Shown: positions 2,626-64,000 of the stretch, piece by piece
How the letters are laid out: each line of letters starts with the position of its first letter
Position numbering within the stretch: position 1 is the first letter of the stretch
Source: an uncultured virus (IMG/VR IMGVR_UViG_3300013120_000767)
Taxonomy: Duplodnaviria; Heunggongvirae; Uroviricota; Caudoviricetes
DNA: 64,000 nucleotides
Virus record (IMG/VR): IMGVR_UViG_3300013120_000767
Location: 62,001 to 126,000 of that record
Reading direction: 5' to 3' (one strand)
Program-made: the position numbers and the translations under genes
Notes under the pieces: generated by a model
Told to the model about the DNA's origin: nothing
Seen by the model: only the letters and a program-made list of their open reading frames with translations
Databases searched by the model: none

Positions 2626-2633
2626 GGTGACCA

Positions 2634-6868: not shown

Positions 6869-6885
6869 AAGGAAGCGAGGTTCTA

Positions 6886-13115: not shown

Positions 13116-13124
13116 GTCGAAGCT

Positions 13125-13166: not shown

Positions 13167-13198
13167 GGGTCCTCAAACCCACCCTGAGCAATAGCGAG

Positions 13199-15939: not shown

Positions 15940-15951
15940 CTCTTACCTCCG

Positions 15952-16270: not shown

Positions 16271-16650
16271 TCGTACTGCACCATGACCACCTCGATGGCG
16301 CCGTCGGGTTGGGTTTCGATTGTTGCCTCATACCCCATCTCCTCAGCGTACACCAGGGCGGCCTCCACGTGGTACTGGTCGGCGACTTGATTGACCCACT
16401 TGGTCATGTACTCATCACCGACGAGTCGATGCTTCCCCTCCACTTCTTGGACGCCTATGTCCCAAGGGACACCGGGGACTTCGATGACTGCCACCTGGTC
16501 ATGCTTGAAGCCCCGCTCGGCGGCAGTGTCGTTGTGCAGCGTGCGGATGGTAGACTTGCCTTGGCAGTATGTGAACCCTACCTTCTGGCAAGCCCTCTCC
16601 AGCAACTCGAGGCTTTCCGGTTTGAACTCCATCTCCACGGCGTGGCTCAT
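16267..16650 (-). CDS. DUF1257 (Ycf35-like) protein
   Basis: 'MSH..LLERACQKVG..DIG..LVGDEY..QY..GY..QPDGAIEVV'. Confidence 0.75.
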   Translation of the reverse strand: MSHAVEMEFKPESLELLERACQKVGFTYCQGKSTIRTLHNDTAAERGFKHDQVAVIEVPGVPWDIGVQEVEGKHRLVGDEYMTKWVNQVADQYHVEAALVYAEEMGYEATIETQPDGAIEVVMVQYE

Positions 16651-18074: not shown

Positions 18075-18195
18075 TCGTCCTCCGTAATTGACAGCTCAGC
18101 GGCAATCTCGATCAAGTCAGTAGGAGAGCCGGAAAACCCCAACTCCCGCATGTGGGCGATGATGTCTTCCGGCTCTTCGATAAGTACCGTGGGAG

Positions 18196-29991: not shown

Positions 29992-30593
29992 TTCAACACT
30001 CCTTTCAGGGTACTCAAGATACGGAGTACCCCAGCTAAGTCCTCCTCCCATTCCCTCGTCTTTTCCGGCTTCCGGTCGATGAAGGCGGGGTGATGGACCA
30101 TGTACACTGGAAGAGTCCACGTGAGCTCGCCCAGTTCCATCGGCAGGCGGAACATCCGCCCCCGTAAATCAGTGATTCCTTGCGTCGTGTGCAGCAGCGC
30201 CTGCCCGCTGATCCGGCCGAGGCCGACAATCATGAACGGGTCCAGTAGGCGCAGTTGCTCCATCAAACGGGGCGCGCACACCCCGTACTCGTCTTTGCGG
30301 GGGTCTCGGTTGTCCAAGGGGCGGCACATGACCACGTTGGTCAAGTAAGCGTCCTTGGGGTCGAACCCTACCTGTTTGAGGGCTGCTTTAAGGCGCTGAC
30401 CGGACTTCCCCACGAAGGGCCTCCCGGTATCATCCTCTACTTCCCCCGGGGCCTCCCCGATGAATACTACCTTTGGGGATAGGCTGCCCGCCCCGAACAC
30501 GGTGTGGTTCCTGTCCTCGTGCAGTCGACACTTCGTGCACGCTGACCACTCCGTTTTCAAACGTCCCAATGCGGTAGCCGATGTTTTGGGCAT
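29982..30593 (-). CDS. Family 4 uracil-DNA glycosylase
   Basis: 'CTKCRL', 'FIGEAPGEVED..GRPFVGKSG', 'TNVVMCRP', 'HPA'. Confidence 0.95.
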   Translation of the reverse strand: MPKTSATALGRLKTEWSACTKCRLHEDRNHTVFGAGSLSPKVVFIGEAPGEVEDDTGRPFVGKSGQRLKAALKQVGFDPKDAYLTNVVMCRPLDNRDPRKDEYGVCAPRLMEQLRLLDPFMIVGLGRISGQALLHTTQGITDLRGRMFRLPMELGELTWTLPVYMVHHPAFIDRKPEKTREWEEDLAGVLRILSTLKGVLKCR

Positions 30594-33195
30594 ACTTCCT
30601 CATCATTTGAGCCATGGCATAGCACGGCTTAGCCTTGGGCACGTAAACGATCACCCAGGGCTGGTTCTTACTCTCAACATCCCGTAAGGACCGCCAGATG
30701 GCTTGCAAAAACCGCCCTTCCGAATCCTTCCCGACGGGCATTGTGATGAGGACTAAATCGAGGTCCAGCCGATTCAGACCCTCTCTCGCAGCTCCCATTG
30801 TTCCGACAATCAAATCGTTTGTCAAGAGCTCTTTTTCCCGCTTCTCCCATTTCACCTTCCCGGTAATGATTCCAGTAGGTTGGAGCTTCTCCTCGAACAA
30901 GTCATGCAGCCAATGGGCGTGTTTTCGAACATGGGTGAATACCATAGGTATTCTCCCTTGTTCGACAAACCCCCTGACGTCCGCAAAGATGCGGCGGTTG
31001 AACCCTCGCTCTTTGGCGATTTTTTTCCAAAACAGAGGAAAGTTGAACTTCCCTCCGCGATCTATCACATCTTTGTCGTGCTCTGTAGTCTTGATGGGAA
31101 CTTCAACGAAGGCCACCAGGGGCTTCATCGAGTGGTAGGTCGACCGGTATATCACCGGCCCCAGGTGGTAGAGGTACAGCGGTAGGGTGCCGTCCGCCCT
31201 TTCGGGGGTAGCCGTGAAACCGAACCTGGCTCCCCGGAACATGGAGGCGACTTTCAGCCCGGTAGGGGACCCAAGATTATGGACTTCGTCAAACACCACT
31301 GTTCCGAACTTGTCCCGTAACTCGACCGGGTAGATCCCAGCCTTCAAGGCCAGCGATCGCAGCGAGGCGATGACAATGGGCTTCTCCAGCTCGGAGTACT
31401 TGGCCCCATTGAAGACGCCGATGTCCTCCTCAGCAATTCCGGCCTTGTCCGCCAGCTCCCGCTTCCAGCCGCTGATGATGGACAGCGTGGGGAGGATGAC
31501 GATGGTCGCCTTGCCCCGCTGCACGATCTTCTTGACGGCCAGGACAGTGTTATGGTTGATGAAGCCATTACCGTAATACTCGTGCCCGTTGGGTACGGTG
31601 AAGTCCACTACGTCCTCAACGGTATTCTGGAGCTTGGTTACTTTCAGGAAGCGGAGACCGTAGCGGTCTATTTCCCTCAAGAGGCTTTCCAGAACCCTTC
31701 GGATGTGGTTACCCTTTTTCCCTTCTTTGTCTCGTACAATGCGTAGGAACTCACGCAAACGAGGGCGGCTGATGCCGACGGTTCGGGCATCCTTGTACGC
31801 AGCGTACACCTCTTGCCCGTACTCTTTGGCGCACTCGTACACCAGCCTACTGACTGGGACGACATCAATATTTGAGTTTCGGGGCCTCCTTTCCAGGTGT
31901 CTACGCAAAGTCGCCAGGGAGGCACCTTTGCTCCCAGAGCAAAACCCAATTTTCTCGGCGAACTTGATAACGTCGCCTCCACGGATTCCTACCTCCCAGG
32001 CATCTAAGTGGGTTGTTTTCTTTTTCCGCACTTTGGCCAGTATGCCCAATGCAAGGAGAGCTTGCTGAATCTCCCTAGAAAGCCGTTCGCTAGCAGACGA
32101 CGAGGTTACGCCGTCTTTGGGGATTACCCCCCCATCTGCGGTAAAGTACCCTTGGAGGAACCAACGTAGTACGTCGCTCCCTTGCCGCAGAACCGCCACA
32201 GGTATCGTTTTGTTCTCCGACTTAACCGAGAGAAGTCCATGGTGTTCCAGCCACGCCTTGTACTGGCAGGAACATATTTCGTAGTCGCAGTTGGACCCGG
32301 TGCCTTTACGCAACTTCACTCCTGCTGCCTTAGCGTGAGCCCGCATGACTCGCAACACGTCAGGGTCGACAGTTGATATCCTTGTCCGATTCCTAACGGT
32401 AAGCCCCCCGTCTCCAACAAGGAGCCCCAGAACAATAGCGTCTGTCCGGGATAGCTGCCCGGTTAGGTTAATGTCCGTTGACGAGTAGTCGGGGTCCTTC
32501 CGGGCATACTTGAACTTCTTCGCCTTAGCCGCTCCCCAAGACATGGAAGTAGCCAAAGCGACGTAGTCCCCCTCCTTCAACTCCCCCACCATGGTCCAAT
32601 TCAGGGTAGCTGTATCCGGGTCTAATGTAACAAGTGGGTGCTCCAATGTGCCTGCTTCCTGATATCCTAATTGCGTCTCTATAGAACGGCAGACAGAGAC
32701 TGGGAAGCGGTACGCCCTAGTTGCTTGTTGTGGGCCATTACGGGAATCTAGGAATAAAGCCTCCCCACTTGTTATTGCTAAGTGGGCGTCCTCGGCCCTG
32801 AAAATTCCTTGGTCAGTGTACAACCAAGTTCCCAACCCTACGCACTTCCCGCGACCCCCCGGAATGGAAAAAAGGCCGCCGTCGGCGTGCCTCAATGCCT
32901 CCCAGGCCTTCTCCTGTTCGGCATCCAGGAAGGAGGTTACTCGATCCTCCATGCGGGAAAAGTCCCGACCGGGAGGGGTCAAGTCCAGGACCTCCACGTC
33001 CATGGGGAACTCCCGGGGGATTGCTATGTGGGTGTCCGATTCGTGATAGCCGATACGGGCATGCTCGATACCGTCCAAGTCGGTGTTGTGGAAGGTCAAC
33101 CGCTCCCGGACTTCGGCAAGGTCGACCTCTGCCTTCCGCAGGAAGAGCAGGCCTGACTTGAACGAGGGCATCTCCCGTAGGTCTATGATGTTCAT
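30430..33195 (-). CDS. Superfamily 2 (UvsW/ResIII-like) helicase interrupted by an intein
   Basis: Walker A GGRGK|T split by the intein; DEVH; 'GFTATPERADG'; 'EGLN'. Confidence 0.9.
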   Translation of the reverse strand: MNIIDLREMPSFKSGLLFLRKAEVDLAEVRERLTFHNTDLDGIEHARIGYHESDTHIAIPREFPMDVEVLDLTPPGRDFSRMEDRVTSFLDAEQEKAWEALRHADGGLFSIPGGRGKCVGLGTWLYTDQGIFRAEDAHLAITSGEALFLDSRNGPQQATRAYRFPVSVCRSIETQLGYQEAGTLEHPLVTLDPDTATLNWTMVGELKEGDYVALATSMSWGAAKAKKFKYARKDPDYSSTDINLTGQLSRTDAIVLGLLVGDGGLTVRNRTRISTVDPDVLRVMRAHAKAAGVKLRKGTGSNCDYEICSCQYKAWLEHHGLLSVKSENKTIPVAVLRQGSDVLRWFLQGYFTADGGVIPKDGVTSSSASERLSREIQQALLALGILAKVRKKKTTHLDAWEVGIRGGDVIKFAEKIGFCSGSKGASLATLRRHLERRPRNSNIDVVPVSRLVYECAKEYGQEVYAAYKDARTVGISRPRLREFLRIVRDKEGKKGNHIRRVLESLLREIDRYGLRFLKVTKLQNTVEDVVDFTVPNGHEYYGNGFINHNTVLAVKKIVQRGKATIVILPTLSIISGWKRELADKAGIAEEDIGVFNGAKYSELEKPIVIASLRSLALKAGIYPVELRDKFGTVVFDEVHNLGSPTGLKVASMFRGARFGFTATPERADGTLPLYLYHLGPVIYRSTYHSMKPLVAFVEVPIKTTEHDKDVIDRGGKFNFPLFWKKIAKERGFNRRIFADVRGFVEQGRIPMVFTHVRKHAHWLHDLFEEKLQPTGIITGKVKWEKREKELLTNDLIVGTMGAAREGLNRLDLDLVLITMPVGKDSEGRFLQAIWRSLRDVESKNQPWVIVYVPKAKPCYAMAQMMRKYAQNIGYRIGTFENGVVSVHEVSTARGQEPHRVRGGQPIPKGSIHRGGPGGSRG
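31549..32844 (-). mobile_element. Intein (432 aa) with LAGLIDADG homing endonuclease
   Basis: Starts 'CVGLGT', has block B 'TLEHP', LAGLIDADG motifs 'LGLLVGDGG' and 'FLQGYFTADG', ends 'YYGNGFINHN' followed by Thr. Confidence 0.95.
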
Positions 33196-37182: not shown

Positions 37183-37700
37183 GTGTAATCCTCCAGGGGC
37201 GGGAAAGTCTCCGCCCGGGCGATGCCGGCAGCTTCAGCTTCATCCTCGTTGAGCCTTTCGCCGTAGATCCCCAGGACCATGTGGCGGGCCATCCGTTTCA
37301 GTACGTCACCGGTATAGCGGCCGGAGGCCCGGGCGCCGAGGACTCGCTTCCTCCACGTCGACGGTTCGAGGAAGATGGGCAGGGCTGTTCCCCCGTTGTC
37401 AAACCATGCCTGTACCCACATCCCTGACTTCCGGGCGGTGGTCAGAGCATTGCGGGGGTCCCGGCGCATTTTGCCGGTTTCTTTGTTCCTGCGCAGGTCG
37501 AGCCACTGTTGCTCGATGACGATAAGTTCTGGTTCATGCAGCATGGCGAGTTCCACGCTTTCTGCGATAGACTTGGCGAGGGCCCGAAACTTTCGGCTTT
37601 TTGGGAACGACCCGTACCCTAAGAGTGCATCACCTCGGACGCAGCACCACGCATTTGGGGGGTCGATTCCAAGAACGACCAGCGGTTCGGGTATCCTCAT
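37179..37700 (-). CDS. RuvC-like Holliday junction resolvase
   Basis: 'VLGIDP', 'IVIEQ', 'PSTWRK', 'NEDEAEAAGIA'. Confidence 0.8.
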   Translation of the reverse strand: MRIPEPLVVLGIDPPNAWCCVRGDALLGYGSFPKSRKFRALAKSIAESVELAMLHEPELIVIEQQWLDLRRNKETGKMRRDPRNALTTARKSGMWVQAWFDNGGTALPIFLEPSTWRKRVLGARASGRYTGDVLKRMARHMVLGIYGERLNEDEAEAAGIARAETFPPLEDYT

Positions 37701-37711
37701 GCCCGCACCTC

Positions 37712-37892
37712 TTTAGTTTGCTCTTGTACCGGGCGTGTTTGCTTTCCGCCAGTTTTCCGCATCCTCCTCCGCCGCTCGTTGCGAGCAACGGGTTTCTATG
37801 CCGGTAGGTGTCTTGAAGCGCCAAACATATTCCCCCTCTTTCCACACTTCGTAGAGAGCTTTGTCGTTACTGGTTTTGCTGGTGTTGCTCAT
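37712..37892 (-). CDS. Small hypothetical protein (not in ORF track)
   Basis: RBS GAGGAGGAG; MSNTSKTSNDKALYEVWKEGEYVWRF..; boundaries approximate. Confidence 0.45.
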
Positions 37893-37977
37893 CTTTCGCT
37901 CCTCCTCTTTTGCGCTATTTGTCCCTACAAGCCCGCACTTGGGAAGAGTAATTTCGGCCCTTCCTGCGGGGGGCTTG

Positions 37978-38202
37978 CTACTGGTCGAGTGGTATCCACA
38001 GGCAATGGAAGCCTAGCTCCTTGAGGATTTGGGCGATCTCCTCCTGGGGTAGGCGGACGAACAGCAGGTCCTCCTCCCGCATGCACTGGGCCTCCTTCAG
38101 GCGGAAGCGTTGATGTGCCCGCTTCGCTGTCTTGATGGAGGGGAACTCCAGCTCCCAAGGGAAGTACTCCCGGGCTGCCACTGTGTTGCGTTCTTGAGCC
38201 AC
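37978..38202 (-). CDS. Small hypothetical protein
   Basis: RBS GGAGG. Confidence 0.5.
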   Translation of the reverse strand: MAQERNTVAAREYFPWELEFPSIKTAKRAHQRFRLKEAQCMREEDLLFVRLPQEEIAQILKELGFHCLWIPLDQ

Positions 38203-38255
38203 TTTTGTTTAACACCTCCAAGGCCCATCATCCACAATTGGGGGGGTCGCGTCAA

Positions 38256-38450
38256 CTAGAACATTGCTTGTTCTTCGTAGAAGTTGCGTACTCTAGCAAA
38301 AGAGTCTTCGTTGTAGGCGGGCGCTTCCCCCCTTATGCGGCAAAGGTCGTTCTCCGCTTTCATCCCCTCCACTTCGGCCAGTAACCTGGCGGCAACAAGA
38401 AACCGGAGCGAAGCTCTGTCAAACAGGTCTGCGGCGCGGGTATCAGGCAT
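38256..38450 (-). CDS. Small hypothetical protein
   Basis: 'AEVEGMKAEN..RGEAPAYNEDSF' is a common small phage protein pattern. Confidence 0.6.
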   Translation of the reverse strand: MPDTRAADLFDRASLRFLVAARLLAEVEGMKAENDLCRIRGEAPAYNEDSFARVRNFYEEQAMF

Positions 38451-38775
38451 TTTTCCTTGCCTCCTGCGCAAGTAGGCGCCGTAGCTCGGCACGTTTCCGC
38501 TTGCGTTCTTTCAGCTTCCCTTGGAGCGCTGCAATGTCGCGCTCCACCCGTTCCAATACGTTTTGGGCTAAGGCGGCTTTGGTTGAGAAATACAGCTTCT
38601 CATTGTAGGCGTGGAACCGTTTTCCGGGTCCCTGCACTGGGCAACAAACCATTTGCTGATAGCCGATGCCGACGTTGCAGGGGTCGCTGAGAACCTCCCC
38701 CGACCGTAACTCTTCCCGGTTCCGCCAGTGCAGGATCATTCCTTTTTTGATGGGTACTCCGTCGGCGGTATTCAA
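38443..38775 (-). CDS. Hypothetical protein
   Basis: Coupled in the early-gene array; C-terminal coiled coil. Confidence 0.55.
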   Translation of the reverse strand: MNTADGVPIKKGMILHWRNREELRSGEVLSDPCNVGIGYQQMVCCPVQGPGKRFHAYNEKLYFSTKAALAQNVLERVERDIAALQGKLKERKRKRAELRRLLAQEARKNA

Positions 38776-39428
38776 GCTGGCCAGAAACCCCAATGGCCGA
38801 GCGCGTCCCGCCCGAATTTGAAGCCGGTGGGGGCGTGCTTGTCCATGACCTCCTTGAGGTTCTCGAGGAGCTGTTTGGGCTCGTCCGAGTCCCACCAGGG
38901 GTGGTCGGTCGGGATTTCCTTGGGGTGCCTCCCCCTCAGTCCTTCCGGGATGTGCGGGCTGCTCAATTCGTAGAGCTTGTCGACTATAGCGCAGAGCAGC
39001 GCCCATTCGTCGGAGGAATCCAAGACGTCCTCGAAGGGCTCGGCGGTTGCCACTTCTTCCCCTTTCCCGCATTTCGCAACGAGAGCAACCGCAAAGTCGC
39101 AGTCGCCGGAGGGTTCGAAGGTCCCCTTTTGTGCTCTGCTCAGGGCTACCTGTTCGGCGTCGTTTGGGTTCTTAGCTTGGACCCCAATGGTGGTGACGTG
39201 GTATGAGGTCCTGTTGATGACCACATCGAAGAATGGCATACCTGTGGGCGGCTCTTTCCCGGTTACGAAGCCCAGGGCCTGGGCGGCGATGGGGTCGCCC
39301 CCTTCCGCCAGGCGCAGGACAGCGTCGTAAAGCGTCCGGAAGGCTCCTGGTTTCAGGAGCCTGGGATGTACGCCTTCGCAGGCACTTCGGAGCTTCTCGG
39401 TGTCTTCGAGGGGGACTTTATCCTTCAT
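38772..39428 (-). CDS. Hypothetical modular protein
   Basis: RBS GGAGGAG; C-terminal 'MDKHAPTGFKFG..GHWGFW'. Confidence 0.7.
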   Translation of the reverse strand: MKDKVPLEDTEKLRSACEGVHPRLLKPGAFRTLYDAVLRLAEGGDPIAAQALGFVTGKEPPTGMPFFDVVINRTSYHVTTIGVQAKNPNDAEQVALSRAQKGTFEPSGDCDFAVALVAKCGKGEEVATAEPFEDVLDSSDEWALLCAIVDKLYELSSPHIPEGLRGRHPKEIPTDHPWWDSDEPKQLLENLKEVMDKHAPTGFKFGRDALGHWGFWPA

Positions 39429-53452: not shown

Positions 53453-54208
53453 ATGCCGAGCAACAACTTTGGAGCGTTCCTGTCGATGAGTTACCACGGC
53501 TGGTTCACTGAGCGCCTGAAGGACGTCCGAAGCTACATCGACCGGGCGTTCATGAACAGCGAGGGTGGCCTCCAGCGGAACACCATCCCCTTCTTCTGCC
53601 TGGGGGACGGGCCCGCCGGGGATGACCAGCACCCGATCATTGTGGACGCTGTGGCCTCGCACGAGATTTACATCGGAGCCTACCAGATCAACTATGGCCT
53701 GGGTTACTGGGCCCCGAAGGCCGGCTTCCGCCTTTACGCCTTGGAGGGCAACACGGGGAAGGACTACAACCTGGTCATCAACGTTGCTGCCGGCGCCGCC
53801 TTTGTTTTGGCGTGGGCCGCTGCCACCGAGACCTTGACCATTTCCATCCCGAACGACGAGTCCGGGACCTTGGCTGGGTTGCGCACCGCCTTGCTGGCGG
53901 ACGCCACCTTGCGGGAGATGTTTGCCGTGAGCGGCACGGATGCGGTCACCTTGGTTGCCGCCGACGTCATGGCCTCCACTGCCATCACTGCCCCGGGCAC
54001 CTGGGGAACCGGCGTGGCGGGAATGGCGATGCTCGCCGACCTGTACTTCTCCCGGTTGGAGCCGAACTGGGCCATGCTGCACATCCTGGCCGACCAGTTC
54101 AGCACGGCGCTGGACGCTTTCTTGCCCCTCACCCTTGTGGTTGAAGTGTGGAACGACGGCCAGCTCATGCAGTTCCACCACCTTGCCCAAGCCGAGGGCG
54201 CCGAGTAG
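53453..54208 (+). CDS. Virion structural protein (putative)
   Basis: RBS GGAGGAG; Ala/Gly/Thr-rich beta domain. Confidence 0.55.
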   Translation: MPSNNFGAFLSMSYHGWFTERLKDVRSYIDRAFMNSEGGLQRNTIPFFCLGDGPAGDDQHPIIVDAVASHEIYIGAYQINYGLGYWAPKAGFRLYALEGNTGKDYNLVINVAAGAAFVLAWAAATETLTISIPNDESGTLAGLRTALLADATLREMFAVSGTDAVTLVAADVMASTAITAPGTWGTGVAGMAMLADLYFSRLEPNWAMLHILADQFSTALDAFLPLTLVVEVWNDGQLMQFHHLAQAEGAE

Positions 54209-54217
54209 AGACGACAG

Positions 54218-54739
54218 GTGAAGCTGACTGATCCCGCACTCCACCCAGTGTTCTTGGCGTTCCTTTTGGACGAAGGGGGTGCTGGGTGGGTTGAGTGGGG
54301 GGCAGCGAAGCTGAGGTCGTTTGTCGGCCCTTGCTCCCAGGGCAATTGGAACAAGATTCAAGGGGCAAAGACCGTTCGCTGTTCCCACGCCGCATTTGAT
54401 GACTTTCGGGTCTTTTCTCACGTGGTGCAGGCACTCAACGGCAGGACCCCTAACTTCTTGCTGTTGGAGCCCCCGAGCATCCCTGAGTTGGTGGGTGGGG
54501 CGCAGATGGTGATGTTGCTCGCGTTGCACACGGATAAGCAGTTCGCCCCCGAAGTTTATCGGTACGCAGCGGCCGTGAGCGACCTGCATGGGGCGGGGAC
54601 TTTACCGGAACCGTTGAAAAAGTCTTCGGAGTATGTAAAGGTACCAATAAGGGCCCCCGGTCTCCGCGAGGAAGCTGCGGAGTATGTGGGGAAGTTGAAC
54701 CGGGTGTTGATCGCCCAGATGGAGGCGCACGGTGGGTGA
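54218..54739 (+). CDS. Hypothetical protein
   Basis: In the operon upstream of the portal. Confidence 0.6.
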   Translation: MKLTDPALHPVFLAFLLDEGGAGWVEWGAAKLRSFVGPCSQGNWNKIQGAKTVRCSHAAFDDFRVFSHVVQALNGRTPNFLLLEPPSIPELVGGAQMVMLLALHTDKQFAPEVYRYAAAVSDLHGAGTLPEPLKKSSEYVKVPIRAPGLREEAAEYVGKLNRVLIAQMEAHGG

Positions 54740-56669
54740 AGGCAGAGTCAAATCGTTGCCGCAGAGGCGGCCGCCTTCCAAACTGGCCGCTTACGATCGG
54801 TCCCGGCTGACGTTGAGCAAGCCCCCGTCGCCTTTTTTGGATTACGCCAGTACAGTACTCCCCGACACCCTCCATGAGGTATGGCGGTGGTGCGCCTACT
54901 TCGCCATCTTCAACCCCCTACTCAATGCTGCCATTGTCCGCAAAGCATTGTACCCGGTTACCGATCTCACTTTGCGGGGCGGGCTTCGGGAGTCTGAAAT
55001 AGACGACTGGGTGGAGCTCCTGACGGAGTTTTTGGATATTCAGGCGTTGCGGGTGCAGATCAACCTTGACCTCTATGTGTACGGGCACGCTGCAGTGTCG
55101 GTGATCGCCCCGTTCAACAAGTACTTCCTCTGCAAGAAGTGCGGGAAGCCTCACTTAGCCAAGATCGCCAAGTTCAAGGTGGACCCGTGGGACAAGTCCT
55201 TCCGGGTGCGTTGTGTGGTCTGCAAGAGCTACCAACGAGCAGTGGTCAGGGATTTCTACATCAAGGCGGGGAATCGCATCACCCTACGGCGGTGGGACCC
55301 CTTTGAGCTGTCGGTGAGGCGCGTCGGCTTCTCGTTGCAGCCTAAGTACCAGGTGGATTTCTCCAAAGAGTTTCGGAACCAGGTCAAGTTAGGGAAGCGG
55401 GAGGCCATTGCCGACACCCCGCAGGAGTTTGTTGAGGCCATCCTCCGTAATAAGAAGATGAACCTGTTCAATGACCAGGTGTTCATCTTTGAGGAAACAG
55501 CGCTGACTCCTTCCACCTACAAGAAGTCCGTGCAGACCAGGGAAGGGTGGCCCTGGCCGACGTTGGCCGGGACGTTGCCTGACTGCTTCCATATGAAGAT
55601 TGTTTTGAAAGCGGAGGAGGCGCTGGTGATGACTCAGCTCATCCCTTTCCGGATGATCACCCCGGCCGCTTCCGGAGATGCTGGGCACAGTGTGAACCTG
55701 TCCGGCGCCGCAAAGATGTGGATGGACAAGATGCGCAGCCAGCTGGAGACTTGGGAGCAGGACCCGGCCTCGGTGGCCATTTCCCCCATCCCGTCGCAGC
55801 TGCTCCAGTTCGGGGACCCCAATCGCCTGCTCATGCCTGACCAGCAGGTCAGGTTGCTGATGGAGCGTATCCTCATTGGAGCGCGCACACCGGTCGAGTT
55901 CGTGTGGGGCGGCAAGTCGTGGTCGGGCGCTTCCCATTCTCTGCGGGCATTGGACACCGAGTTCATAGCGTTGATGCACTTGCACAAGCGGTTCATTCGG
56001 TTCGTGATGAAGAAGTGCGCCTCCATTCTGGGCTGGGGGCTGCCCAACGAGGTCTTCCTCCAACCCATCATGTCCGGGGACGAGGTCCAGAAGCTCTCCA
56101 TCCTGAGCGGCATGGCGGCCCAGGGCGGCCTGGCGTACCGGGTGGTGCACGAGCGAATGGGCCTTGACAGTGAGGCCGTTTGGGAAGCACAACTCGAGGA
56201 GCAGAAGATGCGAGTGCGCAACCAGGCGGCGATTCAGCGGTTGCAGGAGGAATTGGGGCTCGGCCCTCCACCGGGGCAGCCTCAACCTGGGCAGCCTCAA
56301 CCTGGCCAGGAAGCACCGCCGGGAGGAGCCCCTGGAGAGGGACAGCCTCAACCCGGCCAGGAGGCTCAACCGGGGGAATCCCCCTTAGCGCCTCCCCCCG
56401 ACCAGTTGTCGGGAACGCACGGGGTGATGGGAACGCCGGAGATACTCGCTATGGTGCCTCCCGAAGGTGTGGACCCGGGGGCAGTACACAAGATCAGCAT
56501 GGCGCTGAAGCATCAGTCCCCCTTGCAGCGGGCTATGGTGTTGCAGGACATCGCCAACAAGAACATTGATATGCACCGGGCGCTGATGGAGCAATTCAAC
56601 CCCATGCAGCCGGTCATTGAAAGGCCCCTCCCTGAGCAGCTCCCGCCACGCAGAGCGGGGTACAGCTAA
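54732..56669 (+). CDS. Probable portal protein with zinc-ribbon insertion and Pro/Gln-rich tail
   Basis: 'WRWCAYFAIFNPLLNAAI..YPVTD', 'LDLYVYGHA', 'GWPWP', 'ILIGARTPVEFVWG'; CKKC..CVVC insert. Confidence 0.7.
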   Translation: MGEGRVKSLPQRRPPSKLAAYDRSRLTLSKPPSPFLDYASTVLPDTLHEVWRWCAYFAIFNPLLNAAIVRKALYPVTDLTLRGGLRESEIDDWVELLTEFLDIQALRVQINLDLYVYGHAAVSVIAPFNKYFLCKKCGKPHLAKIAKFKVDPWDKSFRVRCVVCKSYQRAVVRDFYIKAGNRITLRRWDPFELSVRRVGFSLQPKYQVDFSKEFRNQVKLGKREAIADTPQEFVEAILRNKKMNLFNDQVFIFEETALTPSTYKKSVQTREGWPWPTLAGTLPDCFHMKIVLKAEEALVMTQLIPFRMITPAASGDAGHSVNLSGAAKMWMDKMRSQLETWEQDPASVAISPIPSQLLQFGDPNRLLMPDQQVRLLMERILIGARTPVEFVWGGKSWSGASHSLRALDTEFIALMHLHKRFIRFVMKKCASILGWGLPNEVFLQPIMSGDEVQKLSILSGMAAQGGLAYRVVHERMGLDSEAVWEAQLEEQKMRVRNQAAIQRLQEELGLGPPPGQPQPGQPQPGQEAPPGGAPGEGQPQPGQEAQPGESPLAPPPDQLSGTHGVMGTPEILAMVPPEGVDPGAVHKISMALKHQSPLQRAMVLQDIANKNIDMHRALMEQFNPMQPVIERPLPEQLPPRRAGYS

Positions 56670-56910: not shown

Positions 56911-58011
56911 TCAGAACCCTTCCTCCTCCTCGTCCACGACAAGTATGCCCTCCCTTGCGGACGTGGCGGCACGGTACAGGTACCATGCCCTCTCGTGATC
57001 TTTCCACCAGGCTGGGGGCGGGAGCAGCACAACCCAGTCGGTGTCGTTCAGTGTGTAGACCGTCATGATGCGGCGGTCGCTCCCACGGGGGTAATTCAGG
57101 CCGGTGGGGGACCATACGGCATTGAGGTCCTTTTCCAGCACATCCATGGGTACCGTGTCCTTGGCAAAGTCCGACACGTAGTCACACTTGGCGAGTTCCT
57201 CAGCGGTCTTTTCCGGCGTGCCTCTCCGGAGATACCGTTCCCGAGTGAACTTCGTTTGGCAGGCTTCCAGGATGAGCCCGTAAGCTCGGTTGGGGCCATG
57301 CCGTGCTATGTCCGCCACGGTAGTGGCAAACACCCCAAAGTCATCTTTGGGGAAGCGATTGGGCGTTGCCCAATCAATCAACTCCATATCTGCCCAAGTT
57401 GGCACGACGACCGTAATCATTCGGGCATCCTCCTCGATGGCGTCCACCACTTGGATGATATCCTCATCTATCGGCAGCCACTGGTCCGGGTGGAACCCCA
57501 GCTCTCGTAGATTCCGCACGATCGTGAAAGGCAGAGAGACCTCGTTCTCTGCGGCGTTCATGAGCAGATTCGACATCGCCCCCGGCCTTGGGGATCGGAA
57601 CGGGTCCCCAACGAGGTGGATGGCCGATTTGAAACTTGCACCGAAGAATGAGTTACTTACGGTTTCGGCGTTGACCAGGGTGACTTCGCAATCCGGGGGT
57701 ACGATGTACTCCCAGGCCAACATGTAGGGGATGACTCCGGTGTCCTCAACTTCTTTCAGTACTGCCCGCCCGGCTTCGCTCCGCCCCACTTCTTCCTTCC
57801 CCCAGCCATAGGCTTCCCAGGGGGCCTTTCCGTAGTGGGCTTCAAAGAGCTTTATGGATTGGGCGTTGGAGATGAGGACCATCCCCTCTGGCAGGTGGTC
57901 TCGGAAGAATCGGGAGAATCCGCCCCTTCCTCCGATCACCCTCCCGTCGAGTTGTGTCTCGTCAAGCCGATGTGCTACCTGGCGAGTCACACTTGTGATG
58001 TCTAGTGCCAC
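56911..58011 (-). CDS. Hypothetical protein
   Basis: 366 aa, RBS AGGAGGT; downstream of GCTATAAGAAC. Confidence 0.7.
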   Translation of the reverse strand: MALDITSVTRQVAHRLDETQLDGRVIGGRGGFSRFFRDHLPEGMVLISNAQSIKLFEAHYGKAPWEAYGWGKEEVGRSEAGRAVLKEVEDTGVIPYMLAWEYIVPPDCEVTLVNAETVSNSFFGASFKSAIHLVGDPFRSPRPGAMSNLLMNAAENEVSLPFTIVRNLRELGFHPDQWLPIDEDIIQVVDAIEEDARMITVVVPTWADMELIDWATPNRFPKDDFGVFATTVADIARHGPNRAYGLILEACQTKFTRERYLRRGTPEKTAEELAKCDYVSDFAKDTVPMDVLEKDLNAVWSPTGLNYPRGSDRRIMTVYTLNDTDWVVLLPPPAWWKDHERAWYLYRAATSAREGILVVDEEEEGF

Positions 58012-58097: not shown

Positions 58098-58175
58098 GGG
58101 ATTTGGCTGCCCTTTGCTACGCTTCTTTCTTTTTAGCGCCGGGTAGGTTAGACTACGGACTAGTGGAGGGAACCG

Positions 58176-61100
58176 ATGCCGGACAGGACGCTCCCCCGGG
58201 ACTACTCGGAGAACTTGAACGCTGCCATGCGCGCCCTTGAGGGGCAGTTCCCGGTCAAGTACGGGAAGAGGGAGTTGCGGCTGTCCGAAGTAGAGGTGGA
58301 AACCCCCAAGGACCCCACTGATGTCAGCGCCCAGAAAGCTGCTCGGGTGCAGGGGAAGAAGTGGGGCGTAGGTATTCGGGGGACCGTGGCGCTGTATGAA
58401 GAGGGGAGGCTTGTAGACAAGCAACGGCTGCGCTTGGTGAATGTGCCCGTGCCTACTTCCAGGTGGAGCTACATCGTCAATAACAGTGAGTACTACCCCA
58501 TTACTCAGAACCGGCTGAAGCCGGGGGTGTTTATTCACCGCAAGCAGACAGGGGATACCGTTGCCTCTTTCAACCTCTCCCGGGGGAGGAACTTTGAGGT
58601 CCTGTACAGCCCGGAGCGGCAGCTCTACACCTTGAAGTACGGGGACACCAATGTCCCTCTTTACCATGTCATGAAGGCCTTGGGGGTGGATGACGGTGAC
58701 ATGCGGTCCGCCTGGGGTGCAGAAGTGCTCCAAAAGAATGCAGCGACTAAGCCCAAGTTGGTCCGGTTGCTGGCAGCGGCGGGGGTGGACTCCAACGAGA
58801 GCGGGGCCCCCCTGTTGGTCCGGGAGATGTTCTCCGCCATGGAGATGAGCACTCCTGAAGTGCCGGAGAAGACTATTGGGTTGAAGACTACCAAGGTCTC
58901 CTCCCAGGTGATGCTCCTCTCTTCTCGGAAGTTGCTGAACGTGGTGCGGGGGAAGGACACACCGGACCGGAGAGACTCGTTGGAGTACCGTTGGTTCATG
59001 AACATGCCTGCGTTCGTGCATGAGCGGATCAGCCGAGCGGGAGTGACCGGGAAGCTCAAGTACCGAATGGCCAAAAGTGACGATGTGACGGCTATCATGG
59101 GTGGGTCCTCCCCGTACGACAAGTCGGTGTGGAGCATTTTCACCTCCGCCGGCCTGGCCGACCGGGCGCCGCAGACCAACCCCTATGCGGAATTGGGCGC
59201 AGTGGGCCGGGTCAGCATCATGGGGGAGGGGGGCATCTCCAACCCCGACGCCATCACTGAGGCGGCCCGCTCCGTCTACCCCACGTTTGTGGGCGTCATC
59301 GACCCGGTGGTGACGCCGGAGAGTGAGAAAGCGGGGGCGGTGTACCCCCTTTCTATCGGTGGTACGGTGAAGAACCGGGAGCCTGCTCTCAGGGTACGCG
59401 AAGTGAAGACGGGCCAGCCCCACACGTTCACGGTGCGGGAGCTGCTCAATACCCCGTACGCGCTCACTGATGAGTATGCTCAGGCAAAGAAGGCTGGGCG
59501 GAACGTACGGGCCATCAAGGGCGGCAAGGTAGTCGAAGTGCCGGCCGGGAGCGTGAAGTACGTTATCGACCCGGCTACTACTTTCTCAGAGGTGACCCTG
59601 TCCACCCCGTTTGCCACTGCCACCTCCCCCAACCGCTTGGAGATGGTGTACCGTCATTTGACTTCCGCTATTGCCTTGCGGGACCGGGAGGTTCCGCTAG
59701 TACTGACGGCCACGGACAACGGTCGAATAGTGGAGCGAGTAATTGGAGACATGGTGGTGATGCGCTCTCCCGTGAACGGAACCGTGGTTTCCGTGAACAA
59801 AGACCGCATTCTGGTGAACGGGGAGGACGGGCGGAAGCACAAGGTCTTCATCCCCCATATGTTCCCCTTGAACGACGGCCGATCGGTGGAGCACCACGAG
59901 CCCGTAGTGAAGAAGGGGGACAAGGTCAAGAAGGGCGACCGCCTCACAGAGGCCAACACTACTCGGGACGGGCTCATCGCCATGGGGGTGAACGCCCGGG
60001 TAGGCTACATGGCCGACGGGTTCAACTTCGAGGACGCCATCACCATCAGCGAGTCCTTTGCCGCCAAGCTCACTTCTACAGCTATTGTGCAGAAGCACTA
60101 TAGCGAAGACGCTGAGGTGGACGCCGCGTTGTTCTCCCGCACTGTACGGCCGCTGTCGGTGGAGGAGCGGGCGACGTTGGAGGATGGGGTGGTAAAGCCA
60201 GGTACTTTGGTCCGAGAGGGGCAAATCCTGGTGGCCGGGGTGAAGAAGCAGGCCATGTCCAAAGAGGAGCGCCTACTGGGCAAGAAGTTGGGGATGGAGA
60301 CGCTCAGAGACGCCTCGGTGGTGTGGGATCGGCAGACCCCCGGAATCGTGCAAGAGGTGGAGAAGACGCCGGATGGGTACTACATCGCTGTGGCGGTGGA
60401 AGAGGTGGCCAAGCTGGGCGACAAGCTCAGTGGCCGGCATGGCAACAAGGGCGTATGCGGAAAGATCAAACCGGATTCGGAGATGCCCACCACCAGGGAC
60501 GGGAGACCGCTTGATGTCTTGCTTAATCCTGTCGGAATCGGGGGGCGTACAAATCCCTCCCAGATGTACGAGACTCTGGTAGGCAAAGTTGCCAAGAAGA
60601 AAGGGCACCCCATTGCGGTCAGCAGCTTCTCCGGAGGTGTCCGTATTGTTGATGTCCCGGCGCATGAGCGCACCTACTGGGTTGGGAGGGGGGAGGAGCG
60701 CAGGCCGATCAAGAAGCACATCGAAGCTTACAGCTACGAGCGGGACTTCGTTGAGGAAGTGGCGGAGCTCCTGAAGAAGAACGGGATGTCCGACACAGAG
60801 GAGGTCTTCGTTGACGGCAAGAAGGTGGGGGACGTCCTGGTGGGGTACCAGTACTTGCTGAAGCTCATCCACCAGGCCGAGCACAAGATGAATGCTCGAG
60901 GTGCCGGCTACCCCTACGCGTACTCCGCTGAAGGTACCCCGGTAAAAGGTGGGGAGGCCGGAGAAGGCGAAGTAGGGAAAGCCCAGTCTGCCGACCGGGG
61001 GATGGCCATGGCCCTACTTGCACACGGTGCTGGCGAGAACATGCGTGAGGTGCTCAGCTATCGTGGTGACAAGGACAACGATGCAGTGTGGACCGCCATT

Positions 61101-64000
61101 CAACTGGGGCAAACCCTACCCCCTCCTCGGGTCCCCAAGGTGTACCACAAGTTCGAAGCCTACCTGAATGCGGCCGGGTTGAAGCTGGAGAGGGAAGGGG
61201 ACGAGATGTGGCTCTTACCCATGACCAATAAGGAGATCCTGGCTCGTTCCAACGGTGAATTGACCAAGCCCACCATGTTCTCCGGCAAGACCGGCAAGGC
61301 AAAGGCGGGGGAGCTCTTCGACTCGAAGATTACGGGTGGTTTGGACGGCTCGGGCTGGGGCCATATTCGTCTCCCTTACGAAGTCCCCAACCCAGTGTTC
61401 ATTTCCCCCATCTCCAAGATCTTGGGCTTGACCCGTGCGCACGTTATCGCTGTGGGCAGCGGGCAAAAGGGCCTTCAGTACGAGGACGGGAAGTACACGG
61501 CGGTAGATGGGCCGGGCAACACCACGTTAGGTAAGGCCCTTAGGGAATTGGACGTCCGAAAGGAGCTGAGCAAGGGAGGCGACCCCCTACGTCAGAGGTT
61601 CCTCCGGGCTCTGGATGAGCTGGGCGAGGGAGCGGACGTATACATGCTCCGCAACGTCCCTGTGATACCCCCGGTCTTTCGGCCGGTTACCTCTATGAAG
61701 GGGCGGCTGATTATTTCGGACCTGAACCTCCTGTACGGCGACCTTATTGCCACTGGCAACTCACTTAAGGGGTTGAAAAAGGAAACCCCTGAGCTCATGG
61801 CTTTCGAGGAGGGGAGAAACGCCCGGGGTAAGCTTTACGCCGACGTAGCCGCCCTGTTCGGTTTAGGCAAGACGGAACACTACAGGGAAGCCAAGGGCAT
61901 CTTTCAGCAGCTGCACGGGACCGGCTCGGTGAAGTTGGGCATGGTCCACCGCAACATCATGCGGCGTCGGCAGGACTTGTCCGGGAGAGCCGTGATTGTC
62001 CCCGGGCCCGGTTTGCACCTGGATGAGGTAGGAGTTCCGCGGGAGATGCTGCGGGAGATGTACCAGCCCTTCATTGTCCGAGAGCTTGCTACTTTGGGAT
62101 TAACCCCTTTGGTAGCTAAGAAGCTCACCGAGGACCGTCCTGAGGACCCCCTGGTTGAAGCCGCCCTGAAACGGGCTATTGCTGACCGCCCGGTGTGGCT
62201 GAAGCGGGACCCGGTGCTTCACAAGTTCGGCGTTATGGCCTTCTTTCCCCGCCCGACCAACGAAAACGTCATTGAATTACACCCCCTGGTGACCAGCGTG
62301 TACAACGCGGACTTCGACGGGGACACCTGCTCTCTCTTCGTCCCCGTTTCCGACGAAGCGGTCATCGAAGCCAAGCGCAGCATGCCCTCGAGGCTGCTCA
62401 GGAGTCCCTCCAGCGGCGATTACCTGTACACTCCGACCCATGAAGCGCTGATGGGGCTTTTCGACATGACTGCGGTGAGGGGAAAAAAGGCAAAAAAGGG
62501 CTTCGGGGACCTCAAAAAGGCCATTGCTGCCCAAAAAAGAGGGGAGATCGGGGTCACGGACCGCATTCGGGTGGCAGGGAAGGAGACCACCCTCGGCCGG
62601 AGCATGATTCAAGGCCTCTTACCTCCCGAAATGGCGAGTTTTTTGGCTGTTGGCGCTCCCCAGTTGGACAAAAAGCGCCTCCAAGCCCTCGCAGAGACCT
62701 TGGGGGTGGTCTCGCCCGCCCGTTACGGGGCGGTCATGGACGGCTTGAAGAATTTGGGCTTCGAATACTCCTACCGTTCAGGCCTGTCGGTGTCCTTGGG
62801 GGATTTGACGCCATTGAGGGCTGAGCGCCGGAGGTACTTGAGGCAGTTGGAGGGGGCGAAAAACAAGGAAAAAGCTGTGCGGGACGTGGGAAGAGCCCTG
62901 GAGAGACAGCAATACCCCCCCGGGAGCACGTTTACCCGGATGAATCGGGCGGGGTTGAAACCGGCCAAGGCAAATTTGCAGCAAATGCTGCTTTCTCCCC
63001 TGTTTGGAGACTGGGGGGAGGGCAACCTCGTGCCGGTGAGGAGGGGGTACGCCGAGGGAATGAACAGTATGGACTACTGGTCCACGGCGCCGACGGCCCG
63101 CAAAGCAGTGGTGCAGTCCGTGCGGTCCGTACGCATCCCTGGAGACATCACCAAGCAGATGTTGGCCGCCACCATGAGCTCGGTCATCGCCACCCGTGAT
63201 TGTGGGAGCACCGGCAGCGTACGCCCGGTGTCCGATGCCGTGGACAGAGTGCTGGGGGAAAGCACCGCGGGGGTCAGAGCAGGCACTATCATCACTCCAG
63301 CCGAGGTAGATATTTTCCGGCGCAAGGGAGTAAAGCAGGTAAGGGTACGTTCCCCCCTGAGCTGCCGCAACGGGGAAGGGATCTGCGCCAGGTGTTTCGG
63401 GCAGACTGAGCATGGGCCGGCCCAGTTGGGGGACAACGTCGGTATCAAGGCCGCCCAGGCCCTGGGGGAGCGGGGAACCCAATTGACGCTTCGCAGCTTT
63501 CACCTCGGCGGCTTCGGGGAGCTCCCCCCCCTGGACCAGGTTACCAACCTTCTCCGTTTGCCCCAGAACTTGCCTGGTAAGGCCACTCTTTCCCATTTGG
63601 CGGGGAAGGTGGCCTCGGTTGAGAAGGTCCCCGACGGCACATACGTGCATGTAACGGGGAGTAAAGGGAAGGGGAAGTACTTCGCTCCGGTGGGCCGCGC
63701 GGTTGTGGTCAAACGGGGTCAGTCCGTGAAGTTGGGGGAGGCCCTCACTACCGGTTTGGTGGACCCGAGGGAGGTGCTTGCCGTGACCAAGAGCTTACCA
63801 GCCGCTCAGCGGTCGATGGCGGACAGCTTGATGGCTGTCTACGGCAAGTATGGCATCGACCCCCGGAACGTGGAAGTGTTGGTCAGGGCCGTTACCAACT
63901 TAGCGGTGGTGGACGACCCCGGCTCTTCCAATAAGATCAAGGGGGAGTATATCCCCTACTACCAAGCCCGGGCTTGGAATCGCTCCCACGACAACTCGTT
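58176..64000 (+). CDS. rpoBC: Fused beta-beta' multisubunit-type DNA-directed RNA polymerase (3' partial, at least 1941 aa)
   Basis: RBS GGAGG; in one frame: beta motifs 'SYIVNNSEYYPITQNRLKPGV', 'QTNP..GEGG', 'DPVVTPE', 'GFNFEDAI', GDKLSGRHGNKG (60417), then beta' motifs 'VPVIPPVFRP', 'SDLNLLY', 'SGRAVI', 'KRDPVLH', NADFDGD (62304), 'RSPLSC..ICARCFG', GERGTQLTLRSFH (63465). Confidence 0.95.
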   Translation, partial: MPDRTLPRDYSENLNAAMRALEGQFPVKYGKRELRLSEVEVETPKDPTDVSAQKAARVQGKKWGVGIRGTVALYEEGRLVDKQRLRLVNVPVPTSRWSYIVNNSEYYPITQNRLKPGVFIHRKQTGDTVASFNLSRGRNFEVLYSPERQLYTLKYGDTNVPLYHVMKALGVDDGDMRSAWGAEVLQKNAATKPKLVRLLAAAGVDSNESGAPLLVREMFSAMEMSTPEVPEKTIGLKTTKVSSQVMLLSSRKLLNVVRGKDTPDRRDSLEYRWFMNMPAFVHERISRAGVTGKLKYRMAKSDDVTAIMGGSSPYDKSVWSIFTSAGLADRAPQTNPYAELGAVGRVSIMGEGGISNPDAITEAARSVYPTFVGVIDPVVTPESEKAGAVYPLSIGGTVKNREPALRVREVKTGQPHTFTVRELLNTPYALTDEYAQAKKAGRNVRAIKGGKVVEVPAGSVKYVIDPATTFSEVTLSTPFATATSPNRLEMVYRHLTSAIALRDREVPLVLTATDNGRIVERVIGDMVVMRSPVNGTVVSVNKDRILVNGEDGRKHKVFIPHMFPLNDGRSVEHHEPVVKKGDKVKKGDRLTEANTTRDGLIAMGVNARVGYMADGFNFEDAITISESFAAKLTSTAIVQKHYSEDAEVDAALFSRTVRPLSVEERATLEDGVVKPGTLVREGQILVAGVKKQAMSKEERLLGKKLGMETLRDASVVWDRQTPGIVQEVEKTPDGYYIAVAVEEVAKLGDKLSGRHGNKGVCGKIKPDSEMPTTRDGRPLDVLLNPVGIGGRTNPSQMYETLVGKVAKKKGHPIAVSSFSGGVRIVDVPAHERTYWVGRGEERRPIKKHIEAYSYERDFVEEVAELLKKNGMSDTEEVFVDGKKVGDVLVGYQYLLKLIHQAEHKMNARGAGYPYAYSAEGTPVKGGEAGEGEVGKAQSADRGMAMALLAHGAGENMREVLSYRGDKDNDAVWTAIQLGQTLPPPRVPKVYHKFEAYLNAAGLKLEREGDEMWLLPMTNKEILARSNGELTKPTMFSGKTGKAKAGELFDSKITGGLDGSGWGHIRLPYEVPNPVFISPISKILGLTRAHVIAVGSGQKGLQYEDGKYTAVDGPGNTTLGKALRELDVRKELSKGGDPLRQRFLRALDELGEGADVYMLRNVPVIPPVFRPVTSMKGRLIISDLNLLYGDLIATGNSLKGLKKETPELMAFEEGRNARGKLYADVAALFGLGKTEHYREAKGIFQQLHGTGSVKLGMVHRNIMRRRQDLSGRAVIVPGPGLHLDEVGVPREMLREMYQPFIVRELATLGLTPLVAKKLTEDRPEDPLVEAALKRAIADRPVWLKRDPVLHKFGVMAFFPRPTNENVIELHPLVTSVYNADFDGDTCSLFVPVSDEAVIEAKRSMPSRLLRSPSSGDYLYTPTHEALMGLFDMTAVRGKKAKKGFGDLKKAIAAQKRGEIGVTDRIRVAGKETTLGRSMIQGLLPPEMASFLAVGAPQLDKKRLQALAETLGVVSPARYGAVMDGLKNLGFEYSYRSGLSVSLGDLTPLRAERRRYLRQLEGAKNKEKAVRDVGRALERQQYPPGSTFTRMNRAGLKPAKANLQQMLLSPLFGDWGEGNLVPVRRGYAEGMNSMDYWSTAPTARKAVVQSVRSVRIPGDITKQMLAATMSSVIATRDCGSTGSVRPVSDAVDRVLGESTAGVRAGTIITPAEVDIFRRKGVKQVRVRSPLSCRNGEGICARCFGQTEHGPAQLGDNVGIKAAQALGERGTQLTLRSFHLGGFGELPPLDQVTNLLRLPQNLPGKATLSHLAGKVASVEKVPDGTYVHVTGSKGKGKYFAPVGRAVVVKRGQSVKLGEALTTGLVDPREVLAVTKSLPAAQRSMADSLMAVYGKYGIDPRNVEVLVRAVTNLAVVDDPGSSNKIKGEYIPYYQARAWNRSHDNS

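Follow-up and report, generated by a model that had tools for sequence, protein, structure and literature searches.

A fused RNA polymerase gene downstream of the portal gene

The DNA analysed here (the window; 64,000 nucleotides of one strand) comes from an uncultured tailed virus of the class Caudoviricetes and covers bases 62001–126000 of the 134,075-base IMG/VR record IMGVR_UViG_3300013120_000767, hereafter G000. At its end lies a gene for a fused beta-beta' RNA polymerase (RNAP; 58176..64000 and on to 64214), recognized by its open reading frame (ORF), by Pfam Rpb2 followed by Rpb1 domains and by matches to bacterial chains; the gene and all of its features described below are on the + strand. 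The ORF starts with the ATG at 58176, 5 nt behind a Shine-Dalgarno-like GGAGGG read directly from the sequence (58165..58170), and runs stop-free through the window to 63998 (1941 amino acids, aa). An initial annotation, made from the sequence alone, had proposed that no stop occurs before 64000; in the parent record the frame closes only at window-equivalent position 64214, 214 bases past the window end, for a total of 2012 aa. With 71 residues left at 64000, the chain is by then near the beta' C-terminus, as had also been proposed. Upstream and co-oriented is a gene for a 645-aa portal protein (54732..56669, + strand), identified by its similarity to the annotated portal gp204 of Salmonella phage Arash (E 9e-35).

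A Pfam search, suggested at the outset as a check, returned Rpb2_3 and Rpb2_6 and then Rpb1_1, Rpb1_2, Rpb1_3 and Rpb1_5. Four of these domains exceeded their cut-offs, namely Rpb2_3, Rpb2_6 (166.7 bits versus 23.4), Rpb1_2 (89.4 versus 25.3) and Rpb1_5 (46.7 versus 28.5), and Rpb1_1 and Rpb1_3 fell below theirs. The closest solved structures were bacterial beta' (Thermus, E 3.7e-91) and bacterial beta (E 1.3e-60), with archaeal and eukaryotic RNAP chains matching far more weakly. Among NCBIfam models, bacterial rpoC scored 395.9 bits (cut-off 963.5), bacterial rpoB 263.1 (cut-off 896) and the archaeal models 87 or less, and the ORF lay far under every cellular equivalog cut-off.

The catalytic motifs share one frame, and the three coordinates first assigned to them (60417, 62304 and 63465) are correct. 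The beta active-site motif GDKLSGRHGNKG (60417..60452, residues 748–759) was placed by alignment, with the family consensus GDK..GRhGNKG. The catalytic NADFDGD (62304..62324) starts at residue 1377 and is invariant or at least 90% conserved in 31 homologs. The bridge-helix region, located by alignment and conservation, spans 63069..63203 together with C1676, the first cysteine of the second zinc site; Cys1730, Cys1737 and Cys1740 of that site fall with the N-terminal half of the trigger loop in 63363..63518, after which the SI3 insert is absent. These four cysteines (RpoC 814, 888, 895 and 898) are kept in at least 90% of the 31 homologs. The N-terminal trigger-loop motif GERGTQLTLRSFHLGG (about residue 1764, base 63465) aligned with the bacterial enzymes, and the alignment of the C-terminal arm was unreliable. 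Catalytic residues and trigger loop are kept across family members that share only 31–46% identity. The gene is a colinear single-chain bacterial-type beta-beta' RNA polymerase, encoded by a phage.

For a domain map we used Salmonella RpoB (1342 aa) and RpoC (1407 aa) as references; their lengths equal those that we take the E. coli proteins to have, and positions are therefore given in E. coli numbering. In this block map the beta module (residues 1–1009, 58176..61202; about 1005 aa had been estimated) aligned with Salmonella RpoB 40–1342, extending to the final RpoB residue and lacking RpoB 215–296 and 317–355 (SI1 region) and 934–1037 (SI2 region). The beta' module (residues 1010–2012, 61203..64000 and on past the window end), delimited by structure matches, block map, alignment and Foldseek, begins at about RpoC residue 18–20 and lacks several loops of 13–25 residues, most of RpoC 942–1100 (SI3) and 1142–1185. 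At 61335..61346, the site of the absent beta' zinc ribbon (RpoC 64–88, four Cys), all 84 homologs aligned have a short Gly-rich loop instead. The lid, clamp helices and rudder region (RpoC 255–320 equivalent) aligned to 61695..61880 and is the expected sigma-docking site; in bacterial RNAP the clamp-helix region docks sigma. The bridge helix is retained in the alignment to RpoC but divergent.

Even the most compact beta-plus-beta' pairs among the bacteria sampled (2284–2298 codons) exceed the 2012-aa protein by about 270 aa. The initial description of the protein as streamlined holds for the zinc ribbon and some loops, which are true losses; it does not hold for most of the length gap to E. 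coli, which corresponds to the missing enterobacterial inserts SI1, SI2 and SI3. The counterpart of rifampicin-pocket cluster I (RpoB 505–537) was aligned to 59136..59234, where the equivalents of RpoB Q513, F514, D516 and H526 are D, R, P and A. These four are rifampicin-binding or resistance positions, and from the replaced pocket residues and known resistance mutations we predict that the enzyme would be insensitive to rifampicin.

The covalent beta/beta' junction (..LEREG-DEMW.., 61188..61211) was defined from an 84-homolog alignment, a structural model and a second contig. The stretch AAGLKLEREGDEMWLLPMTNKEIL (residues ~1000–1023, bases ~61176–61244) is in the same frame as the other motifs, and AAGLKLE continues directly into EMWLLPMTNKEIL near 61190. 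Because beta reaches the end of RpoB and beta' starts at about RpoC 18–20, there is no linker at the junction; the direct run of beta into beta' that had been described at this point is conserved in the 84 homologs. Junction length is constant across these insert-free sequences, with one additional residue in a single sequence. In an AlphaFold2 model of residues 860–1300 (31-row alignment; mean predicted local distance difference test, pLDDT, 71.8) the junction forms a strand, a two-residue turn and a strand, at pLDDT 83–89. Foldseek matched this model best to bacterial beta' chains (E from 3.6e-14, query-normalised TM 0.45–0.49).

The fused family and its phage genomes

A second, separately named IMG/VR contig, G001 (89,166 bases), was 100% identical to G000 over 21,900 bases spanning the whole RNAP gene. 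The homolog is a single stop-free ORF in 76 of 76 related IMG/VR loci: complete without inserts in 50 (2043–2165 codons stop to stop), complete with inserts in 14 and truncated by the locus end in 12. Rpb2 and Rpb1 domains were both present in 120 of 120 database homologs listed, most of which span 98–100% of the query. We take the fusion to be real because of the identical second contig, the 76 stop-free loci, the presence of both domains in the listed homologs and the fixed junction length. We consider it improbable in the extreme that misassembly or a sequencing error created the fusion, or that the contig is cellular DNA wrongly filed as viral: G000 and G001 agree fully at both of their overlaps and form a circle of 183,773 bp, every one of the 76 related loci has the fusion with a conserved junction, and the surrounding genes are of phage type, with rplL or rpsL context absent. 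We are nearly certain that the fused RNAP gene is genuine and belongs to a phage family.

Large in-frame inserts extend 14 of the 64 complete fused-RNAP ORFs to 2391–3596 codons (L090, L112, L114, L132, L136, L143, L147, L149, L151, L155, L159, L161, L162 and L163). Precomputed Pfam annotations of the insert-bearing proteins include LAGLIDADG, Hom_end and intein-splicing domains, and because of these inserts and listed domains we regard the fused RNAP gene as a frequent intein target. The RNAP match in Vibrio phages D148 and D181 overlies an annotated homing endonuclease. Shorter relatives were seen as well: seven shorter database proteins, of 30 matches at E ≤ 1e-20, were aligned, and none of the seven starts at the beta/beta' boundary. 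Among P0125, P0126 and P0136, two proteins (951 and 955 aa) begin with Met at the equivalent of about residue 1117 and one (633 aa) at about residue 1466, the Arash break point. These proteins suggest that the chain is broken at differing sites in different sub-lineages, among those seen never at the canonical beta/beta' boundary, and contig ends may account for some of the breaks.

The nearest relatives among 50,697 GenBank phage records were Vibrio phages D69, D148 and D181 and Salmonella phage Arash, at ~28% identity. Database searches returned 731 proteins at E ≤ 1e-10 among 8000 scored candidates, a number that may include ordinary bacterial subunits in the length range, and at least 665 IMG/VR stretches with RNAP homologs were confirmed. 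Fused homologs number in the hundreds (31–46% identity) and lie on phage contigs of up to 210 kb, two of which have terminal repeats. The enzyme is therefore not unique; these homologs are already in public databases, some of them automatically named 'beta subunit/beta' subunit'. A scan of prokaryotes, using one genome per species for 185,579 species, found ordinary rpoB-rpoC loci only, at 25–34% identity among the best 80 of 827 matches.

We built a neighbour-joining tree from Kimura-corrected distances (67 sequences, 1949 trimmed columns, 100 bootstraps) with 32 fused proteins, Arash, D69, Cobetia phage Carin-5 and 32 bacteria; L037, L063 and L089 were excluded because their ORFs were broken or ambiguous. 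The fused proteins together with Arash and D69 formed a clade in 100 of 100 bootstraps (the fused proteins alone in 56 of 100), and all phage sequences were separate from all 32 bacteria in 100 of 100. Within the fused family the mean corrected distance (1.08) was larger than among the bacteria (0.58), and between the groups it was 1.77. The eight nearest bacterial samples stood at 1.73–1.76, with no phylum nearer than others. Known cellular fusions fell apart from the phage fusions, that of Helicobacter grouping with Aliarcobacter and that of Paceibacterota with Saccharibacteria. In a metagenome-assembled genome of Candidatus Paceibacterota, rpoB and rpoC form one 2284-codon ORF (L057:163-7014, + strand).

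These data bear on the proposal, part of the initial annotation, that the enzyme is a captured host core. Under this alternative a phage recently took up a host rpoB-rpoC pair, which was then fused and trimmed. In its gene order and in most of its domains the enzyme is colinear with RpoB and RpoC of bacteria, and archaeal models score far below bacterial ones, as capture would predict. We nevertheless consider recent capture very improbable, because the best cellular matches are so dissimilar across the species scanned, all sampled phyla are equally distant, the split between phages and bacteria is fully supported, the fused family is more divergent than 32 bacteria of many phyla, and the scores lie far below cellular equivalog cut-offs such as that of rpoC. 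A host clade and an rplL-rpoB-rpoC-rpsL context had been named as marks of a host gene; the phage forms lie outside the 32 bacteria and have no rplL or rpsL context. The tree argues against recent capture and gives no date for the origin. The RNAP belongs to a large, old family of tailed phages of ~175–210 kb; the fusion is fixed among them, with the RNAP gene placed a short distance downstream of that for the portal.

The place of the gene is conserved. Of the loci with 7 kb or more of upstream flank, all 53 have a portal homolog ahead of the RNAP gene in the same orientation (median gap 894 bases, range 45–4791); counting every locus, the figure is 62 of 76. The initial description of the gene as near the portal and co-oriented thus extends to the family. 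Between portal and RNAP the window has a 366-aa ORF on the opposite strand (56911..58011, − strand; GC content at third codon positions 0.70). It has neither a Pfam nor a PHROG match, and none of 78 related loci carries a homolog; this points to an insertion, specific to the lineage, between two genes otherwise conserved as a pair. The genes flanking portal and RNAP had no PHROG or Pfam match, and two of them had no tblastn match in the 50,697 phage records.

G000 and G001 overlap at both ends with 100% identity (17,419 and ~22,049 bases), giving a circular map of 183,773 bases. CheckV rated G000 alone 73% complete; we regard the phage genome as complete because the two contigs together close into a circle. 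The genome bears out the initial assignment of the gene to a phage: besides the portal gene it has a large terminase (PHROG 9.4e-41), a baseplate-J-like protein and a phage replication module with family A DNA polymerase, primase, DnaB-like and other helicases, UvsX-like recombinase, Cas4-like nuclease and Holliday-junction resolvase, along with a GroEL-like chaperonin and a block of sugar, radical-SAM and QueC-like enzymes. The circle has a single RNAP gene, and a second RNAP set was not found in G000, G001 or five near-complete relatives. No transfer RNA genes were found in the window.

Three further features of this genome were recorded. A 921-aa superfamily 2 helicase in the window (30430–33195, − strand) is split by an intein with a LAGLIDADG homing endonuclease (LAGLIDADG_3 2.6e-15, Intein_splicing 4.7e-8). 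Outside the window, the chaperonin is a 555-aa GroEL/Cpn60-family protein (G000 37366–39033, − strand; Cpn60_TCP1 3.7e-37). Also outside the window, the enzyme block (G000 5166–18694) comprises a PAPS-reductase-like protein, two glycosyltransferases, an asparagine-synthase-like protein, a radical SAM/SPASM protein, a methyltransferase, a UDP-glucose dehydrogenase and a QueC-like protein, and may be a module for DNA or virion glycan modification.

A sigma-like partner and a proposed mode of action

No alpha, omega or sigma gene lies inside the window, as the initial annotation had stated. For the whole genome this does not extend to sigma: a 317-aa sigma70-family candidate is encoded at G000 53565–54518, 7.5–8.4 kb upstream of the window start. 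It matches Pfam Sigma70_r3 at 6.6e-9, above the cut-off, and Sigma70_r2 at only 0.019; a C-terminal helix-turn-helix (3.8e-7) is matched through HTH_24 and not through Sigma70_r4. It also matches the PHROG 'RNA polymerase sigma factor' (7.7e-12) and the SigB/F/G subfamily (4e-16; 59.4 bits, below the cut-off of 234), and is homologous to Arash gp10 (E 8e-13). A sigma homolog is present in five of five relatives rated 91–100% complete (E 6e-11 to 2e-26), each of which has one RNAP frame. An alpha domain was found in 0 of these 5 near-complete relatives versus 14 of 14 control genomes, and Pfam detected no alpha, omega or second sigma in G000 and G001. The match of Arash gp8 to the 1143-aa protein preceding sigma reached E 0.007 only and was not used.

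We predicted a complex of RNAP residues 1006–1500 with sigma residues 95–317, which scored an ipSAE of 0.57 (median of 3 runs; best control 0.00), with partner pLDDT of at least 69 and at least 42% of contacts common between runs; the tool grades this as 'weak support'. In calibration, 116 of 157 solved pairs and 2 of 215 mismatches passed the ipSAE mark, and passes at 0.60 or below comprised only 18 of the 157 solved pairs plus both passing mismatches. The pass of the modelled pair may stem from its likeness to solved holoenzymes.

One alternative is that the RNAP fold has been kept and the protein has another main role, as a structural or ejection protein or as an RNA-templated polymerase. 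The loss of the zinc ribbon, the divergent bridge helix and the poorly conserved flap tip are compatible with such a change, and some virion RNAP-like proteins are fused to structural modules, such as the tape measure of P23-45 (the available text of PMC10770324). Set against this are the catalytic residues and trigger loop, all conserved in a family of 31–46% identity, and the co-occurrence of a cognate sigma in five of five genomes, and we hold another main role to be very unlikely. The protein is probably an active, sigma-using transcriptase.

Bacterial RNAP has five core chains, and an alpha dimer is the scaffold for its assembly. Here one 2012-residue chain holds the complete catalytic core, in which the last beta strand passes through a two-residue turn into the first beta' strand. 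In the mode of action that we propose, this enzyme would work with the phage's own sigma70-family factor, without alpha or omega; the retained clamp helices would be the docking site of sigma, and the covalent joining of beta to beta' would take over the role of the alpha-dimer assembly scaffold. Judging from a distant cultured relative, the RNAP is most likely made late, packed in the virion and delivered with the DNA, and would then start phage transcription independently of the host polymerase.

The packaging step was inferred because Arash homologs are abundant in virion preparations. In the available part of PMC10585845, the virion proteome of Arash includes gp206 with 3516 spectra, the highest of all proteins and above the major capsid protein, gp216 with 1210 and the sigma gp10 with 467. 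The possible virion packaging raised in the initial annotation is plausible in the light of the gp206 and gp216 spectra, and by analogy with Arash we incline to the view that the RNAP is virion-carried. Alternatively, the same single-chain polymerase could remain unpackaged, with host RNAP transcribing the early genes and the phage enzyme with its sigma the middle and late genes in a T7-like manner. Many metabolic enzymes are in the Arash virion list, so the RNAP could be carry-over, and the fused family has one RNAP gene per genome, whereas phiKZ-like phages hold separate virion and non-virion sets (PMC7824862, as far as its text was available). But in 53 of 53 loci the RNAP gene is co-oriented with the portal gene and next to it, a place expected for late, particle-associated products, and in Arash the homolog has the top spectral count and is accompanied by sigma gp10. 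We judge an unpackaged polymerase unlikely, though it deserves serious consideration.

Several points weigh against a packaged, sigma-dependent polymerase of old origin that works without alpha and omega. The zinc ribbon is absent and the flap tip poorly conserved across the family; in bacteria, zinc ribbon and flap tip serve sigma region 4 and RNA-exit functions. The origin was judged from a distance tree that had no archaeal or eukaryotic outgroup and left long-branch effects uncontrolled. The complex prediction gives weak support only to sigma docking, and the RNAP could possibly still use host alpha or omega. No phage promoter motif was found, k-mer enrichment in 79 intergenic stretches of the 183.8-kb circle being not significant. 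The only proteomics come from Arash, a relative of ~28% identity in which the enzyme is split behind the catalytic domain, and the Arash list, in the available text of PMC10585845, comprises 116 virion-associated proteins, including ribonucleotide reductases and ligases, for which its authors raise carry-over. As a candidate promoter motif, GAAAAAGT was tried and rejected: five of its seven genome copies are intergenic, but the window has 2 versus 1.54 expected, and 44 of 100 shuffles reach 2.

Weighing these points, we moderately favour a sigma-dependent, rifampicin-insensitive, single-chain RNAP that acts without alpha or omega and is packaged in the virion. A wider proposal is more tentative and, in our estimate, falls somewhat short of an even chance: a widespread and all but unstudied family of 175–210 kb tailed phages would carry in the virion a self-sufficient two-gene holoenzyme, made of an alpha- and omega-free single-chain core and its own sigma, that branched before or outside the radiation of bacterial phyla and in which the covalent link replaces the alpha-dimer platform.

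If this wider proposal is right, the enzyme would be the simplest known sigma-dependent cellular-type RNA polymerase. With its bacterial architecture and its sigma factor, a one-chain core would offer a minimal system in which to study assembly, sigma docking without a zinc ribbon and rifampicin-insensitive transcription, and one core gene with one sigma gene could potentially serve as an orthogonal transcription module. It would also mean that a large uncultured phage group has host-independent transcription of a kind unlike that of phiKZ, N4 and crAss phages. Cultured relatives in Salmonella and Vibrio make these hypotheses directly testable. The family is more diverse than the sampled bacterial phyla, and its long, readily aligned protein is a marker for the deep branches of phage phylogeny and for the debated question of where viral polymerases came from.

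Comparison with known RNA polymerases

The closest known enzymes are those of the cultured phages Arash (gp206 and gp216) and Vibrio D69, D148 and D181 (~181–187 kb), of which Arash and D69 share one clade with the present RNAP in all bootstraps. In Arash and D69, too, a small ORF stands between portal and RNAP, and beta is joined to beta' at the junction seen here. They differ in that only the N-terminal two-thirds of beta' is joined to beta, the chain being broken after the catalytic domain, near residue 1466–1471 of the RNAP described here, which is uninterrupted: the Arash enzyme is split into 1525 and ~606 aa, encoded by genes ~4.8 kb apart, and that of D69 into 1527 and 609 aa. In the available text of PMC10585845, gp206 and gp216 are annotated simply as beta and beta', with the fusion unmentioned.

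Fusions of rpoB and rpoC in cells (Helicobacter/Wolinella NF007172, Wolbachia-type NF011417 and bacteria of the candidate phyla radiation) likewise form one ORF, beta and then beta'. They have a chromosomal ribosomal-protein/rpoBC context, group with their own phyla and measure 2284–2908 aa, whereas the gene described here has a portal context; its scores against NF007172 and NF011417 were 381 (cut-off 5372) and 340 (cut-off 4632). The beta C-terminus neighbours the beta' N-terminus, hence tethering is tolerated, as Zakharova 1998/1999 and Severinov 1997 reportedly found.

Phages outside the fused clade also encode beta and beta' of bacterial type. Cobetia phage Carin-5 resembles the present phage in having both with an adjacent sigma, but its subunits are separate genes (1083 and 927 aa) in a nucleotide-metabolism and replication neighbourhood and fall outside the fused clade in the distance tree, and its sigma had no detectable similarity to the 317-aa candidate. 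The mReC phages (Weinheimer and Aylward 2020), in the accessible portion of PMC7481178, are likewise tailed and metagenomic, with beta and beta' that align with cellular COG0085 and COG0086 and branch outside cells; unlike the fused form here, the RNAP rows on three contigs are separate proteins. The table totals of that source are 118 COG0085 with 117 Rpb2_6 and 116 COG0086 with 91 Rpb1_2, without an excess of Rpb2_6, and its main text, as available, uses 'fused' or 'fusion' for crAssphage alone. Six sample numbers of fused-family contigs were absent among the mReC RNAP contigs in the available supplement of PMC7481178.

The RNAPs of phiKZ and AR9 are also phage-encoded relatives of beta and beta' that lack alpha and omega and of which one set is packaged in the virion, according to the available parts of PMC7598289, PMC7824862 and PMC13282480. 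Those sources describe them as split into four or five polypeptides in two paralogous sets, strongly diverged and with no sigma-family factor recognizable by sequence. Unlike them, the RNAP described here is fused, single-copy, readily aligned to bacterial enzymes and accompanied by a sigma70-family gene.

Large single virion polypeptides that start transcription are known from crAss-like phages (gp66) and N4 (virion RNAP), and the present RNAP may be virion-carried likewise. The N4 enzyme is T7-like, and YonO and P23-45 are further phage RNAP forms of multisubunit type. In crAss gp66 two barrels are present that are not alignable or colinear with RpoB and RpoC, according to the text available of PMC7481178.

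The literature that we searched in full text, in which most subscription journals are uncovered, gave no account of a fully fused, colinear, sigma-accompanied beta-beta' in phages. Phage multisubunit RNAPs and cultured, partly split relatives were known; what is new is the fused, sigma-accompanied, bacterial-type phage RNAP that marks a large uncultured family.

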